From NCBI GenBank assembly GCA_002307115.1, contig DBTP01000108.1, positions 1 through 10,360 on the forward strand: a stretch of DNA of 10,360 nucleotides, read 5' to 3'. Positions within the stretch are counted from its first letter, which is position 1; each line of letters opens with the position of its first letter. The notes beneath the pieces are model-generated. The model did no database searches, was not told the origin of the DNA, and saw only the letters and a program-made list of their open reading frames with translations. Shown here in pieces: positions 2,145-9,111 of this stretch. The position numbers and the translations under genes are program-made. The stretch is from Fibrobacter sp. UBA1313. GTDB lineage: Bacteria; Fibrobacterota; Fibrobacteria; Fibrobacterales; Fibrobacteraceae.

Positions 2145-3227
2145 ATGAGCTTATTGGATAAAATTAAGGGTGAATTTATTGATATCGTCGAACATTTAGA
2201 AGATGGCGGCGATACTTTGGTTTGGCGCTTTCCCCGCTACCAAAATGAAATTAAAAATGGGGCTCGATTGGTTGTCCGTGAAGGACAAATAGCAGTCCTT
2301 GTGAACGAAGGACAGTTGGCCGATATTTTCCATCCGGGAACTTATTCCTTAACCACTCAAAACCTACCGATTCTCTCCACACTCAAGGGCTGGAAATTTG
2401 GTTTTGATAGTCCATTTAAAGTCGAAGTTTATTTTGTAAGTAGTCGCCGATTTACAGATCAGAAATGGGGGACTCGCAATCCGGTGATGACGCGCGATGC
2501 TCAATTCGGGATGGTGCGTCTCCGCGCCTATGGATCTTATGTGCTTCAAGTGGCTGATGTGCATCAATTGATGTCTCAGATTGTGGGCACTCAAGCGCAG
2601 TTTGATGTGGATGAAATTACGGAACAAGTGCGCAATCTTGTGGTTTCTCGTTTTGGTGATATTATCGGGGATGCAAAAATTCCCGTTCTGGATTTGGCCC
2701 CTCATTACGATGAACTGGGACAATTAGTGGAAAAGAGAGTCCAAAAGGAAATTGCAGAATACGGTTTGAAGTGCTTCCAATTGCTGGTGGAAAATATTTC
2801 TGTCCCTGAAGAAGTGGAACGGAGCATGGATAAGCGTGCCAGTATGAGCGTTGTCGGTGAATCTGATTACACGCGCTATCAGATGGCGACTGCGACTGAA
2901 GTGGCGGCAGGGAACCCGGGAGGTGTCGCTGCGGGGGGGATGGGACTCGGTATGGGTTTTGGAATGGCGCAGCAAATGGTCAACCCCGCTCAGAATCCGC
3001 CGTCGCTCCCTAGTGGCGTGAATGAGGCGATTTGGTGGATTGCTCTGGAGGGTGTGAAGAACGGTCCCCACACGCTCGCTGCGCTTTCTCTGCTCAGTGC
3101 TTCCGGGAAGTTGAATCCAGAAACACTGGTGTGGAAACAAGGTATGGCGAATTGGATCCCGGCGCGTGAAGTGATTGAATTACGGTCTGTGTTCCCGATG
3201 GAACCCCCTCCGCTTCCGAAGGTATAA
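2145..3227 (+). CDS. SPFH/band-7 family protein of the COG4260 / Band_7_1 type (B. subtilis YdjI-like) with a Gly/Met-rich linker and a C-terminal GYF-like (DUF4339-type) domain
   Basis: 360 aa. N-terminus MSLLDKIKGEFIDIVEHLEDGGDTLVWRFPRYQNEIKNGARLVVREGQIAVLVNEGQLADIF...FTDQKWGTRNPVMTRD...LRAYGSYV is characteristic of the soluble SPFH/Band_7_1 family. The C-terminal ~50 aa AIWWIALEGVKNGPHTLAALSLLSASGKLNPETLVWKQGMANWIPAREV fit the GYF/DUF4339 pattern. GAGGA sits 5 nt upstream of the ATG. Confidence 0.8.
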   Translation: MSLLDKIKGEFIDIVEHLEDGGDTLVWRFPRYQNEIKNGARLVVREGQIAVLVNEGQLADIFHPGTYSLTTQNLPILSTLKGWKFGFDSPFKVEVYFVSSRRFTDQKWGTRNPVMTRDAQFGMVRLRAYGSYVLQVADVHQLMSQIVGTQAQFDVDEITEQVRNLVVSRFGDIIGDAKIPVLDLAPHYDELGQLVEKRVQKEIAEYGLKCFQLLVENISVPEEVERSMDKRASMSVVGESDYTRYQMATATEVAAGNPGGVAAGGMGLGMGFGMAQQMVNPAQNPPSLPSGVNEAIWWIALEGVKNGPHTLAALSLLSASGKLNPETLVWKQGMANWIPAREVIELRSVFPMEPPPLPKV

Positions 3228-3229
3228 TT

Positions 3230-3865
3230 ATGCCTATTTGCGTTCATTGTGGGGCTCCTTTGCGCGAGGGGCGTCCTGTTTGTGATTACTGTAAAGCGAC
3301 AAACGACGTGGATTTGTCGGGGCGCCATTATTTTACTACGCATCTTCCAGAGAAAGCACGCACCTGTCCACAATGCCATTCTGAAATGGAAGTGGTGGAT
3401 ATCGGCGTGCCTGGGAAACCGTTTTACTTAGATCGCTGTTCAACGTGTTTGGGAATTTTCTTTGATACGGGCGAGTTAGATGTTCTGGTGCACGAAACGA
3501 TTCAGGGCGTGGCGCATATCAATAATGTAAGGCTCTCGGCCTTGCGCACGGCGGCTCCAGAATCTTCAGAGATCGTTCGGTATCGTCCGTGCCCCGAATG
3601 CGGTAAACTGATGAACCGAGAAAATTACGGAACCTATTCGGGAATCATTTTGGATCGGTGTCGCGATCATGGTGTGTTTTTGGATGCAGGGGAACTGTAT
3701 CGAATTTTTCTTTGGGTTCGCGCTGGGGGAAGTTTGTTGAAACCCCCGCCAGAACCAGAACGCACAAAGCAGCCGCTTTCGCCGATGGAAATAGAAGAGG
3801 AAAATTCTACTTCGGTTTCTTTGATGGATGTGGTGATGGGAGTCTTCAAATTTTTGGGCGGTTGA
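3230..3865 (+). CDS. Multi-zinc-ribbon protein: an N-terminal CxxC...CxxC ribbon plus two tandem TFIIB-type ribbon repeats (YdjG-like)
   Basis: 211 aa. C4/C7...C18/C21. Then CPQCHSEM...LDRCSTCLGIFFDTGEL (aa 46-83), repeated as CPECGKLM...LDRCRDHGVFLDAGEL (aa 121-156). The Ser/Glu-rich C-terminus ends in a hydrophobic tail (VVMGVFKFLGG). The start is 2 nt after the SPFH gene stop (taattATG). Confidence 0.75.
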   Translation: MPICVHCGAPLREGRPVCDYCKATNDVDLSGRHYFTTHLPEKARTCPQCHSEMEVVDIGVPGKPFYLDRCSTCLGIFFDTGELDVLVHETIQGVAHINNVRLSALRTAAPESSEIVRYRPCPECGKLMNRENYGTYSGIILDRCRDHGVFLDAGELYRIFLWVRAGGSLLKPPPEPERTKQPLSPMEIEEENSTSVSLMDVVMGVFKFLGG

Positions 3866-3872
3866 AGTCCGT

Positions 3873-4958
3873 TTATTCCGTGGGGATTCCAAATCGTTTG
3901 AGATGGCAATAGGCTATTTCGCCAGTTTTCTCATCGCGAAGATGCAAACTCCCGCCTTCGCAGTAGCGCCAGTATTTGCAAGTGGCGCAGTCGCCTTTTT
4001 TGGTCCAAGAACGATCTCGCATCACTTGAAAACGATTGTTCCAGACGTCCATAAAATCATCGCGGTAAATGTTCCCTTGAATGTAATCTCCGCGCAAAGA
4101 GGGACAGGCCGAGATGGAGCCATCGGCGAGTACGGAACCGACATTGATTCCGGCGCGGCAGAAGAAAGGATTACTGCGCACTTGATTTTCATAGTCTCCG
4201 AGGAATCCTTCACAGCCGTAGTCGGCCCGGATTTTCCCCTGCAGGCGCGTTTCGCGGATAAAATCGAAAACGCGTTTAAATTCCAAATCACTCAATTTGA
4301 AAATGGGGTTTTCCTTGGCGCGGCCTTTGGGAAAAACCGTCGCGATCCGCCAGCGTTTGAGCTTTAGGTCGATAAGCATGTCCCGGATTTCGGGGAGCTC
4401 CGGCAGGTTTTCTTTGTTGACGCAGGTGACTACATCAAAGAGGAGCCCAGGCGTATGAGAGGCCCAGCGGATAGTATCGACCGCTTTTTCAAAAGAATGT
4501 TCGCGGCCACGGAAATGATCGTGAGAACGATGCAGACCATCAAGACTCACCGTCATGGAACGGAGCCCAGCCGTCAGTAAATTTTTAAACCGTGGCAACG
4601 TCATAGCAAATCCGTTGGTGACAAAGCCCCAGGGGAAACCGCGATCCATAAACGCTTTGCCTGCTTCCTCCAAATCCTTGCGCATCAGAGGTTCACCGCC
4701 GGTGACGACAATCAGGGTTCGCGATGGATTAACGTGTGGGCGAACGTTGTCGAGCACTTTTAAGAAGTCAGCGAGAGGCATATCGGGGTCGGCTTCGCAA
4801 CGACAATCACTGCCGCAGTGTAGACAATTCAGATTGCAGCGAAGCGTACATTCCCAAAAGAAATACGAAAGCGTATGGCTTTTCGCAAGGGAATGACGAT
4901 AAAAACGATGGACTTCAAGCGCGGCTTGCTTCTTGAAAGGAAGGACGTTCTGACTCAT
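3873..4958 (-). CDS. Radical SAM enzyme with a C-terminal SPASM/twitch auxiliary Fe-S domain (probable protein/peptide-modifying maturase)
   Basis: 361 aa. CxxxCxxC radical-SAM cluster motif (C-NLN-C-LH-C followed by GSDC). GGE-like SAM motif VTGGEPLM. The C-terminal Cys array CRAG...SAC...CATCKYWRYCEGG...YC is typical of SPASM domains. The N-terminal stretch before the cluster is short (about 45 aa), so there is no RRE-type leader-recognition domain. Confidence 0.85.
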   Translation of the reverse strand: MSQNVLPFKKQAALEVHRFYRHSLAKSHTLSYFFWECTLRCNLNCLHCGSDCRCEADPDMPLADFLKVLDNVRPHVNPSRTLIVVTGGEPLMRKDLEEAGKAFMDRGFPWGFVTNGFAMTLPRFKNLLTAGLRSMTVSLDGLHRSHDHFRGREHSFEKAVDTIRWASHTPGLLFDVVTCVNKENLPELPEIRDMLIDLKLKRWRIATVFPKGRAKENPIFKLSDLEFKRVFDFIRETRLQGKIRADYGCEGFLGDYENQVRSNPFFCRAGINVGSVLADGSISACPSLRGDYIQGNIYRDDFMDVWNNRFQVMRDRSWTKKGDCATCKYWRYCEGGSLHLRDEKTGEIAYCHLKRFGIPTE

Positions 4959-5998
4959 TATTTTTCTTCAGAGGTTTCGGAAGAGGAAGACTCTGTGGCA
5001 TCCGGGCAACGGTAGCATCCATCCCCTTCAACATAGATCAGAGAACTTGTGGATTCGTTAGGATTGATCGGGTATGAAATTCCATAAAGAGGAGCAAATT
5101 CGGTTAATACACAATTTGTTTTGTTCGAAATAGAACCTTCGCTCAGCGCGGAAGCCAGTTGGGCTTCCGTAATTTCCAAAGAGCAATCATCGTAGGAGGT
5201 GCGGCTCGAAGAAGATTTTGGAGTACTAGAAGATGAACTTGAAGAAACGCTGGAGGAGGATTGCGCTACCGATGATGAGGATTCGTCACCCGGGCAACGA
5301 TAGCATCCCACGCCTTCCTGATAGATAAGAGCTGGACCGGAGTTCACACTGGACGCATCGGAAGAATAAGGAACGCCATAGTCTGTGGCGACTTCCCCTA
5401 AACTGCAAAGTGCTTTGTCATAAATGGAGCCCTCACTCAGGGCTGCCTCTAAGGACGCTTCCGTAATCTCAAGGCTACAACCTTCAACAGAAGTGCTACT
5501 GGATGACGATGCCTGTTCACTGGAAGATGAATTCGTGGCAACGCTGGAAGAAGACGATGCCGAAGAGGAGGAGATTTCGTCATTCGGACAACGATAACAA
5601 CCCACACCATCTTCATAAATAAGCGTTGTGGAGGCGTTCACTTTGGCGATGGAATCGAACATCGCAGGCGAACCGTAAAGGGCAATAATGTTCCCTAAAG
5701 CACAGGTTGTCTTGTCCGTGATGTAACCATTGTCGAGAGCGGTTTGCAACTGCGCTTCCGTATATTCCAGAGAGCAAAGATCAAAAGTACTGGAGCTAGA
5801 AGAGGATGATTCGTTTGTCGCTGTGCTGGAGGATGTTTCTGTAGAAGAGGAGGATGGATCTCCACAGACATCGGAAGGACACCCGTACAAAGTGGCACTA
5901 TTGCTGGTCGATTCATCACACCCGGCCCAAAAGAATGCACACAGGGAAAGCAGTACTTTTTCCCACTTGGAACGAGATTTATTCAGAATGCGTTTCAT
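4958..5998 (-). CDS. Secreted, probably lipidated, Ser-rich protein with three tandem ~99-aa repeats, each holding a ~65-aa 4-Cys domain (C-x23-C-x34/35-C-x2-C) plus a poly-Ser linker
   Basis: 346 aa. Signal peptide MKRILNKSRSKWEKVLLSLCAFFWAG|C has a lipobox-like FWAGC. Repeats begin at C75, C174 and C272. Repeat consensus: CSLEITEAqLxxALseGsIxdKtxCxLgE...YG.pY...LIY.EGvGCYRCPxDE. The linkers are poly-Ser. The stop overlaps the rSAM start as TAATG (4956-4960). Confidence 0.8.
   Translation of the reverse strand: MKRILNKSRSKWEKVLLSLCAFFWAGCDESTSNSATLYGCPSDVCGDPSSSSTETSSSTATNESSSSSSSTFDLCSLEYTEAQLQTALDNGYITDKTTCALGNIIALYGSPAMFDSIAKVNASTTLIYEDGVGCYRCPNDEISSSSASSSSSVATNSSSSEQASSSSSTSVEGCSLEITEASLEAALSEGSIYDKALCSLGEVATDYGVPYSSDASSVNSGPALIYQEGVGCYRCPGDESSSSVAQSSSSVSSSSSSSTPKSSSSRTSYDDCSLEITEAQLASALSEGSISNKTNCVLTEFAPLYGISYPINPNESTSSLIYVEGDGCYRCPDATESSSSETSEEK
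4994..5782 (-). repeat. Three diverged tandem coding repeats of ~297 bp (units about 5486-5782, 5189-5485 and 4994-5188) inside the lipoprotein gene
   Basis: The periodicity is visible at DNA level (catccgggcaacggtagcatcc / cacccgggcaacgatagcatcc / cattcggacaacgataacaaccc, about 290 bp apart) and at protein level (Cys174 vs Cys75 = 99 aa; Cys272 vs Cys174 = 98 aa). Diverged and in-frame, so not a CRISPR array. Confidence 0.75.
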
Positions 5999-6082: not shown

Positions 6083-6406
6083 TCACGCATTTTTGCTGCT
6101 TTTGGCTAAGAAGCCGAGTACAATGAAGGAAATTACAATGGTTAGGATTAAATGAATGTCGGTCAGATTCGTTAAAAATTGACGGAGAAATCGTACGGCC
6201 TGGGAAGAAATGAATCCATAGCCGGCGCCGCACAAGATTACAAAAAATACAAATCGTCCAAGAAACGGAAGCTTTTGGGTCAATTTGCGCGCATATTGGT
6301 TGATGGTGCCACCGTAAATCGTGAGAATTGTGGAGATGAGACCCACGGAAATGGAGACTAAATGCAAGCGTAAAAAATCAGCAAAGTCACGGATGTAATT
6401 TTCCAT
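6083..6406 (-). CDS. Small integral membrane protein, about 3 predicted TM helices (hypothetical; possibly DUF3392-like)
   Basis: 107 aa with three hydrophobic stretches (LHLVSISVGLISTILTIYGG, FVFFVILCGAGYGFISS, IHLILTIVISFIVLGFL). It sits directly upstream (84 bp) and on the same strand as the lipoprotein-rSAM pair. TATATT lies at -14..-9 of its ATG, with a perfect TATAAT about 20 nt further upstream. Confidence 0.55.
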   Translation of the reverse strand: MENYIRDFADFLRLHLVSISVGLISTILTIYGGTINQYARKLTQKLPFLGRFVFFVILCGAGYGFISSQAVRFLRQFLTNLTDIHLILTIVISFIVLGFLAKSSKNA

Positions 6407-8811: not shown

Positions 8812-9111
8812 TTATGCAGATTTTTTTTGAGTCTTTGCTTTTGGAATAAAACAGGGGAGTTCCCCTTCTTTTATACCGATCAACATTTCTTTTTCTTCTT
8901 TGGTGCGCGATTTAATCAGAGCTTCCAAACGAAGTGCTTCGGATTTGGTTTCAACTTCAAAAAATTTCAGAATTTTTTCTGGGGGAAAAGCGCGGGTAAA
9001 ATTGGCCCCCTTGCCGCTCAGATGTTTTTCAAAGCGCGCCTGCACATCCGTTGCGTATCCCGTATAAATGCGATTTCCGGCACAGCGAAGCATATAGACA
9101 AAGTGGGGCAT
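8812..9111 (-). CDS. GIY-YIG nuclease-superfamily small protein (YhbQ / UPF0213-like)
   Basis: 99 aa. N-terminal FVYMLRCAGNRIYTGYATD matches the GIY-YIG motif, with a conserved E further downstream. TATATT lies at exactly -12..-7 of the ATG. The stop is 11 nt before the GH31 start. Confidence 0.75.
   Translation of the reverse strand: MPHFVYMLRCAGNRIYTGYATDVQARFEKHLSGKGANFTRAFPPEKILKFFEVETKSEALRLEALIKSRTKEEKEMLIGIKEGELPCFIPKAKTQKKSA

Follow-up and report, generated by a model that had tools for sequence, protein, structure and literature searches.

The window analysed here, a 10,360-nt stretch of Fibrobacter sp. UBA1313 (contig DBTP01000108.1, assembly GCA_002307115.1), carries on its minus strand a gene encoding a 346-aa lipoprotein (4958..5998) followed by a gene encoding a 361-aa radical S-adenosylmethionine (rSAM)/SPASM enzyme (3873..4958). 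The pair belongs to a catalogued rSAM/lipoprotein system whose association was already known, and is best read as that system with a lineage-specific cargo domain, rather than as a new category. Our favoured reading, to which we give a probability of roughly 55%, is that of a Fibrobacterota rSAM/lipoprotein system in which the enzyme modifies X-Tyr-Gly (YG) motifs of its partner before export, probably by excision of tyramine. The initial annotation of this DNA had proposed an undescribed system that crosslinks Cys residues of the lipoprotein; its observations were confirmed with small corrections, and its interpretation was supported in part.

The rSAM matched the NCBIfam family TIGR04133 ("rSAM_w_lipo") with 558.2 bits against a curated cutoff of 425 bits, residues 8-356 aligning with profile positions 1-349 of 350. 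Proteins of its 90%-identity cluster appear in NCBI as 'TIGR04133 family radical SAM/SPASM protein' and in JGI as 'radical SAM enzyme (rSAM/lipoprotein system)'; with these names already in use, the system cannot be called undescribed. A literature search on TIGR04133 and on its companion model TIGR04134 ('radical SAM-associated putative lipoprotein'), the family that recognises Bacteroidales partners, found no paper, the one mention of TIGR04134 being a typo for a type IX secretion system (T9SS) domain. Two Pfam domains are present (Radical_SAM, residues 37-194; SPASM, residues 267-328). The CxxxCxxC motif of the SAM-binding [4Fe-4S] cluster (C41/C45/C48; CNLNCLHC, residues 41-48; 4815..4838, minus strand) is present, as had been reported, and is invariant in the family; as had also been stated, there is no N-terminal RiPP recognition element (RRE; RiPP, ribosomally synthesised and post-translationally modified peptide), because just about 35 residues precede this motif. 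The SPASM auxiliary-cluster region (C249 to C351; 3906..4214, minus strand) has seven Cys residues (C249, C267-x12-G-x4-C285, C324-x2-C327-x5-C333 and C351), and Ser337 stands at the canonical eighth position, that of the fourth Cys in CX2CX5CX3C (window 3906-3950, residues 333-351); the array had been rightly recognised, and only its description as full has to be dropped. One auxiliary cluster may therefore have, via Ser337, a non-Cys or open coordination site. The invariant columns in 16 family members were C249, C267, C285, C324, C327, C333, G335, H339 and C351; R341 is likewise invariant in the family. In a fusion of partner residues 1-72 with the rSAM, AlphaFold2 (AF2) modelled the enzyme with a predicted local distance difference test (pLDDT) above 90 and a predicted TM-score (pTM) of 0.80.

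A scan of species-representative genomes returned at least 592 places encoding relatives of the rSAM, many of them from rumen and gut Fibrobacter and Bacteroidales, so that TIGR04133 is widespread; 79 of these loci were fetched. Of the 77 loci with an open reading frame (ORF) upstream of the rSAM gene, 72 have a lipoprotein gene immediately before it on the same strand; the two genes overlap or are at most 30 nt apart in 48 of the 72, and the pairing spans Fibrobacterota, Bacteroidales and Neomarinimicrobiota. This conserved order bears out the functional link that had been drawn from the window, where the TAATG at 4956..4960 (minus strand; plus-strand CATTA) is real and base 4958 is common to the TAA stop of the lipoprotein gene and the ATG start of the rSAM gene; a TAATG or TGATG overlap occurs likewise in six further loci (L001, L003, L008, L021, L054, L056). 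One sequence retrieved solely by N-terminal similarity (P0132) also lies 6 nt upstream of such an rSAM gene. The closest relative of the window is locus L001, from the Fibrobacteres metagenome-assembled genome (MAG) CG2_30_45_31, with a 97% identical enzyme. No third conserved component was found among the neighbours across loci: those of the window (ArgA-like, FolE, SPFH+GYF, Zn-ribbon, DUF3392, GH31, GIY-YIG and S1) are common only to the near-identical L001. The window pair resembles the TIGR04133/TIGR04134 system in its full-length enzyme member, in its lipoprotein-then-rSAM order, in its tight linkage and in a partner with a conserved signal-peptide n-region and a YG soon after the lipobox. 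It differs from it in the lipoprotein, which is unmatched by TIGR04134 and whose mature part consists of three 4-Cys domains joined by Ser-rich linkers.

What the partners share was examined in 74 sequences (73 loci plus the window) anchored on the lipobox Cys. Their mature parts could not be aligned between lineages, and the signal-peptide pattern and the YG motif were the only shared features. The n-region is, unusually for a signal peptide, conserved between phyla: the Fibrobacter pattern is (F)YKHWKKIALALTxFFWxGC, the Bacteroidales pattern KTYGKILTLFFSLVGMLTGC (KTYGKIL..TGC), and the window sequence in the same alignment KSRSKWEKVLLSLCAFFWAGC. At least one YG was present in all 74 partner sequences, the first of them 6-14 residues past the lipobox Cys in 47. 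YG is the most enriched dipeptide of the mature Fibrobacterota partners (163 observed vs 31 expected from composition, z=25) and is also enriched in the Bacteroidales partners (30 observed vs 8.8 expected, z=7.9), with the reservation, which counts against the favoured reading, that the counts come from related sequences and the z-scores overstate their independence. The Fibrobacterota loci contain 153 genes with the partner signal peptide, all on the strand of the enzyme and up to eight in tandem per locus, and 147 of these partner-like genes encode a YG; the probability of Gly following Tyr was 0.26, vs 0.07 in a control set of 227 other ORFs of these loci, and the observed/expected ratio of YG was 4.9-5.1 vs 0.97 in the controls. 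The context consensus is [IAV][AV][PA][LKE]-Y-G-[VCI][PV]. On this comparison the conserved feature of the partners is the X-Y-G motif and not Cys, and the eye-catching 4-Cys repeats of the window lipoprotein are a cargo domain specific to one lineage rather than the conserved target.

The window lipoprotein begins with MKRILNKSRSKWEKVLLSLCAFFWAG followed by C27, that is, a basic n-region, a hydrophobic helix and a lipobox-like end. Read from the sequence, the signal features (5918..5998, minus strand) are K2, R3, K7, R9, K11 and K14, an n-region K7-S-R-S-K-W-E-K14 that aligns with the partner patterns, LLSLCAFFW, and AG before C27 (lipobox FWAG, then C27); the Trp at position -3 of the lipobox is atypical, yet conserved in the Fibrobacter partners, and AF2 predicts a helix at residues 11-25. 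The mature protein is 27% Ser and has Cys residues at positions 40 and 45 besides the lipobox C27 (C20 lies in the signal peptide) and 12 more within its three repeats. These were correctly described as three 4-Cys repeats with 12 regularly spaced Cys, except that the middle spacing had been given as x35: repeat 1 (residues 75-138; 5585..5776) is C-x23-C-x34-C-x2-C, repeat 2 (residues 174-236; 5291..5479) C-x23-C-x33-C-x2-C and repeat 3 (residues 272-332; 5003..5185) C-x23-C-x31-C-x2-C, all on the minus strand, with pairwise identities of 52-59%. A Tandem Repeats Finder search detected no DNA-level tandem repeats in the lipoprotein gene; the repeats are therefore old. The lipoprotein had no Pfam or NCBIfam match even at E=10, and TIGR04134 matched neither the whole protein nor its single repeats at the same E-value. 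The profile searches placed the enzyme in TIGR04133 and left the lipoprotein and its repeats without a family; the 4-Cys domain itself has been seen only in its own clade.

Overlooked in the initial annotation were four X-Y-G motifs of the window lipoprotein (Y38, Y108, Y207, Y305). The first, L37-Y-G-C-P41 (TLYGCP; 5876..5890, minus strand), lies 11 residues past the lipobox Cys, and the remaining three lie one inside each repeat: L107-Y-G-S-P111 (ALYGSP; 5666-5680) in repeat 1, D206-Y-G-V-P210 (TDYGVP; 5369-5383) in repeat 2 and L304-Y-G-I-S308 (PLYGIS; 5075-5089) in repeat 3, all on the minus strand, the Tyr being exactly 9 residues past the second Cys in all three. The YG sites, including Y207, G208, V209 and P210, are invariant among the homologues of the window lipoprotein (19 found, 9 with a 4-Cys domain). 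AF2 modelled the lipoprotein alone with a mean pLDDT of 50.7; the repeat cores (the strand of the first Cys plus a helix, and the CxxC hairpin) reached 67-79 and the YG segments stayed below 50 (residues 103-119 in repeat 1), so that these segments are predicted to be loops and would be accessible. In a group of homologues of about 200 aa (P0125-P0129) there is one 4-Cys domain with an internal ALYGSP, no N-terminal LYGCP, and a C-terminal ...VAPLYGVPMDD outside any Cys domain instead; YG motifs therefore move independently of the Cys domain.

The distribution of Cys bears directly on the initial interpretation, in which the rSAM installs thioether crosslinks (QhpD-, sacti- or ranthipeptide-like) in the 4-Cys repeats before export. 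The model is attractive for its twelve regularly spaced Cys with acidic neighbours, and Ser337, in the place of the eighth SPASM Cys, could leave an auxiliary-cluster site open for a substrate Cys, as in CteB-type enzymes. In the Fibrobacterota partners, moreover, Cys is frequent near YG (positions -3, +2 and +7), and a relative of the rSAM with 41% identity (P0146) lies among small Cys/Asp-rich peptides. Against it, a tblastn search with each repeat found the 4-Cys domain in just 2 of the 79 loci, L001 (three copies) and L002 (one copy): homologues of the rSAM mostly occur without such a neighbour, an outcome that the initial annotation had itself named as refuting its hypothesis, and the specific link to 4-Cys repeat proteins is refuted. 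The Bacteroidales partners, of 150-170 aa and recognised by TIGR04134 at 89-108 bits (cutoff 39.8), have 0-1 Cys past the lipobox; a Neomarinimicrobiota partner (L075; 75 aa, MKKLYKFWDLLLLSALGLLGSGCILNPPPAEYGPEPLYGTVEPLYGVSS...) has three YG and the partner of L088 (76 aa, ...LMGCGGFSAKYGPPTSTKYGPP...) two YG, neither of them with a Cys past the lipobox. The enzymes of these Cys-poor partners are 42-64% identical to the window rSAM and have the same invariant residues (58-64% in Bacteroidales and Neomarinimicrobiota, 42% in L088; 58-78% in the compared systems as a whole, L088 excepted). Because Cys-poor partners pair with related enzymes of this kind, crosslinking of the 4-Cys domain is not the conserved job of the enzyme. 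Nor were QhpC-, sulfatase- or RRE-type features found, and disulfides would explain the paired Cys of an exported domain more simply. We consider per-repeat thioether crosslinking improbable; by what is generally known of exported proteins, the 12 repeat Cys would most simply be structural and disulfide-forming in a small exported domain.

The other half of the initial interpretation, a cytoplasmic enzyme acting on a pre-protein, remains the most sensible logic, and an n-region conserved across phyla fits it. anSME and QhpD are RRE-less SPASM enzymes that modify signal-peptide-bearing proteins before translocation, and the window pair, an RRE-less cytoplasmic rSAM/SPASM enzyme with a signal-peptide-bearing partner, would share this logic. 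It differs from anSME in that the lipoprotein has no sulfatase motif ([CS]xPxR), as had been observed, and from QhpD in that there are no qhp genes nearby and Cys is not conserved in the partners; neither the anSME nor the QhpD family was among the best 25 NCBIfam matches of the rSAM. In the favoured reading, the rSAM would act on the lipoprotein precursor in the cytoplasm ahead of Sec export, with the conserved n- and h-region of the signal peptide as the recognition ('leader') element. Modification would fall on the X-Tyr-Gly motifs, the first located just past the lipobox Cys and the others in the flexible loops of the three repeats, an assignment that we regard as likely. The likeliest chemistry would be that of a splicease, which would cut out a tyramine equivalent (-135.07 Da, C8H9NO, per site) and leave an alpha-ketoamide; for this we see about an even chance. 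The spliced product would then be exported and lipidated.

Several published features of spliceases point in this direction. Spliceases, themselves rSAM/SPASM enzymes, remove tyramine at XYG (PMC11414181; PMC9811515; PMC10849128), were discovered on Nif11-type precursors (PMC10849128) and in their binary types use a leader helix of the precursor with no separate RRE/Y protein (PMC11414181). The YG context of the partners resembles the verified splice tags PIRP-LYG-LPI and VAA-(M/G)YG-VVFP (PMC10533398). Like the spliceotide systems (PlpX(Y), PcpX, RhaX, RcsX, RasX), the window pair has an rSAM+SPASM enzyme with an adjacent precursor and X-Y-G sites in a Pro/hydrophobic context, and TIGR04133 loci have multiple precursors with a conserved N-terminal region and a variable remainder; a single enzyme beside a tandem series of precursors, alike at the N-terminus and variable beyond it, is the classic RiPP layout. 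Like the binary spliceases it has no separate RRE/Y protein, and by analogy the conserved signal-peptide helix could take the role of their leader helix. Unlike in spliceotides, a Sec/lipoprotein signal peptide would take the place of a 'leader' of Nif11 or NHLP type, and the substrates would be exported lipoproteins of 75-450 aa. A literature search linking spliceases with lipoproteins found no paper; in the account of Scott et al. (Chem 2022, 8:2659) given in PMC10533398 and PMC10849128, YG-rich ORFs beside SPASM rSAMs were mined and 939 systems in 189 genera predicted, and it is quite possible that this set already lists the YG-lipoprotein type.

Second to TIGR04133 among the NCBIfam families came TIGR04103 ('nif11-class peptide radical SAM maturase 3'; 140.5 bits, E=5.6e-41, full length), which we take, provisionally, to be the family of PlpX. 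For this enzyme PMC11002830 gives IPR026482. A number of observations weigh against the favoured reading, and the enzyme's position among its relatives is the first of them. By hidden Markov model (HMM) score the window rSAM lies outside TIGR04103, the presumed PlpX family (140.5 bits vs a family cutoff of 725), and other SPASM families follow TIGR04103 (140) closely (GDL-motif maturase 131, TIGR04053 127, NirJ2 122); the StsB and PapB families scored 55-60 bits. Its solved structural neighbours are generic peptide maturases, the nearest folds being SuiB, SkfB, BlsE and PqqE at 16-25% identity (Foldseek E=1e-15 to 1e-12, TM 0.5-0.6; phmmer E=1e-14 to 1e-6). These share the overall fold of the window rSAM and, unlike it in the present proposal, are not known to act on YG motifs; unlike SuiB, the window rSAM has no N-terminal RRE. 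To our knowledge there is no splicease structure with which to compare it. In published models of known spliceases the XYG site sits within the active site (PMC11414181); in the AF2 fusion of partner residues 1-72 with the rSAM, the YG segment had a pLDDT of 25-29 and no confident pose, and the pLDDT of the signal helix rose modestly, from 53 in the lipoprotein alone to 70. Six of the 153 partner-like genes lack a YG, and a variant chemistry involving Cys may operate in Fibrobacterota, because Cys is frequent near YG there. The splicing chemistry itself is argued by analogy, from two grounds only, the motif and the family resemblance.

The same conservation of YG and signal peptide would equally be expected if the YG or N-terminal region were modified by other radical chemistry: a cyclophane C-C crosslink from Tyr to residue +2 (triceptide-like), epimerisation after the Gly, or a crosslink between the lipobox region and Tyr. 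At +2 after Tyr, beta-branched residues or Cys predominate (V, C, I, T), with Pro at +3, which suits a three-residue aromatic-x-residue crosslink, and SuiB, SkfB, PqqE and EpeE, solved neighbours of the rSAM, are crosslinking or epimerising peptide maturases. We nevertheless judge this rather unlikely, since an invariant Gly right after the Tyr is a specific hallmark of a splice site and, among named families, the rSAM comes closest to the Nif11-class maturase 3 rather than to a cyclophane or epimerase family.

More distant relatives of the enzyme add further points on the opposing side. A search of 1.8 billion cluster representatives showed a broad halo of rSAM relatives of about 360 aa at 30-45% identity. 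TIGR04133 was the best family for all 20 distant homologues scanned, 17 of them below its cutoff, and no PlpX-like representative was found among the 20. P0146 (457 bits, above the TIGR04133 cutoff) is flanked by Cys/Asp-rich peptides with no lipoprotein, P0144 (447 bits) has no partner, P0203 is adjoined by a lipoprotein-like 69-aa peptide without YG, and P0173, P0155 and P0259 have unrelated neighbours. The P0146 locus looks like a different, RiPP-like cluster: its several peptides (L086 887-1443, L087 1209-1498) are of 37-79 aa, with CDxDC-type repeats, up to 17 Cys and the motif 'VSELIFL' common to their N-termini; the locus also has another SPASM rSAM.

P0144, a family-level member without a lipoprotein neighbour, also favours an explanation in which the rSAM produces or modifies a small molecule or cofactor (AhbD/NirJ/BlsE-like) and the lipoprotein is a co-expressed partner, e.g. 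a binding or export component; the NirJ2, AhbD and AhbC families and BlsE are indeed among the next-best matches. We find this hard to reconcile with the partners. Their mature domains are unrelated between lineages and therefore have no common ligand-binding function, a conserved short peptide motif plus a signal peptide is what a peptide-modifying enzyme would constrain, and tandem variable partners per one enzyme fit a precursor/maturase relation. A role in small-molecule chemistry is accordingly given little credence here, and pre-export modification of the YG sites is preferred.

The variability of the partners is most pronounced in Fibrobacter. Tandem arrays of 5-8 lipoprotein genes on the rSAM strand lie on either side of the rSAM gene in L026, L028 and L029, and further array loci are L005, L013, L014, L016, L018, L031, L033, L048 and L060. 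The array signal peptides are near-identical (MFYKHWKKIALALTxFFWxxC or MNIRKHWKK...) and the mature parts hypervariable and Ser-rich; the arrays are possibly a diversifying, multi-precursor gene family. L029 (motifs near 5084 and 10023), L048 (4316-5341 and about 5588) and L060 apparently contain two TIGR04133 rSAM copies a few kb apart at most, each accompanied by lipoprotein genes of its own, and several genomes have two separate loci: RUG14562 (L033/L051), RUG10152 (L030/L059) and UBA4309 (L032/L062). In a Fibrobacteraceae MAG (L027, 4876-5001) the upstream partner is a 41-aa remnant with signal peptide and lipobox, no YG, overlapping the rSAM start, and an unrelated 512-aa lipoprotein follows the rSAM gene. 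A Paludibacter MAG (L079, 4339-4536) has an additional small lipoprotein ORF (66 aa, MKKLILKFYDKLIIGLLFSSFFLASCKDPNPPVPEYGIIPMY..., two YG) immediately upstream of its TIGR04134-type partner. Between the window and L001 (2159-3196) the lipoprotein is about 80% identical, the rSAM 97% and the flanking genes 89-99%, save a 107-aa DUF3392 protein at 75%, indicating that the lipoprotein partner diverges much faster than most of its neighbourhood.

As to function, the lipoprotein might be a cell-surface, three-headed ketoamide protease inhibitor with one additional N-terminal site, an idea that we offer as speculative and rather less than likely. In its flexible loop, each disulfide-stabilised 4-Cys domain would present alpha-keto-beta-Leu or alpha-keto-beta-Asp produced by excision of tyramine at X-Y-G, and the Sec/lipoprotein signal peptide would serve at the same time as RiPP leader. 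If this were true, an exported bacterial protein with a lipid anchor would be undergoing backbone splicing, and the hypervariable YG-lipoprotein arrays of Fibrobacter would represent a diversifying repertoire of inhibitors or adhesins. Tyramine splicing itself, if true, would extend beta-amino-acid/ketoamide backbone editing from small RiPPs to exported lipoproteins and would show that a signal peptide can double as a maturase leader. The comparison sharpens 'an rSAM beside a lipoprotein' into a testable hypothesis with four named Tyr-Gly sites and a predicted dependence on the signal-peptide n-region.

The genes flanking the pair in the window were also inspected. A scan for promoters and terminators around the operon gave counts not above those in shuffled sequences; only a weak -35/-10-like site lies shortly before the start of the lipoprotein gene. 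The 107-aa DUF3392 membrane protein (6083-6406), encoded just upstream of the lipoprotein gene, is conserved in L001 only and is therefore not part of the system. On the plus strand, two genes separated by 2 nt encode an SPFH/Band-7 protein that has a C-terminal GYF_2 domain (2145-3227) and, after it, a multi-zinc-ribbon protein (3230-3865); the second gene converges with the rSAM gene, the two stops being 7 nt apart. A stand-alone GIY-YIG protein of 99 aa (8812-9111) is encoded between the GH31 glucosidase gene and rpsA.

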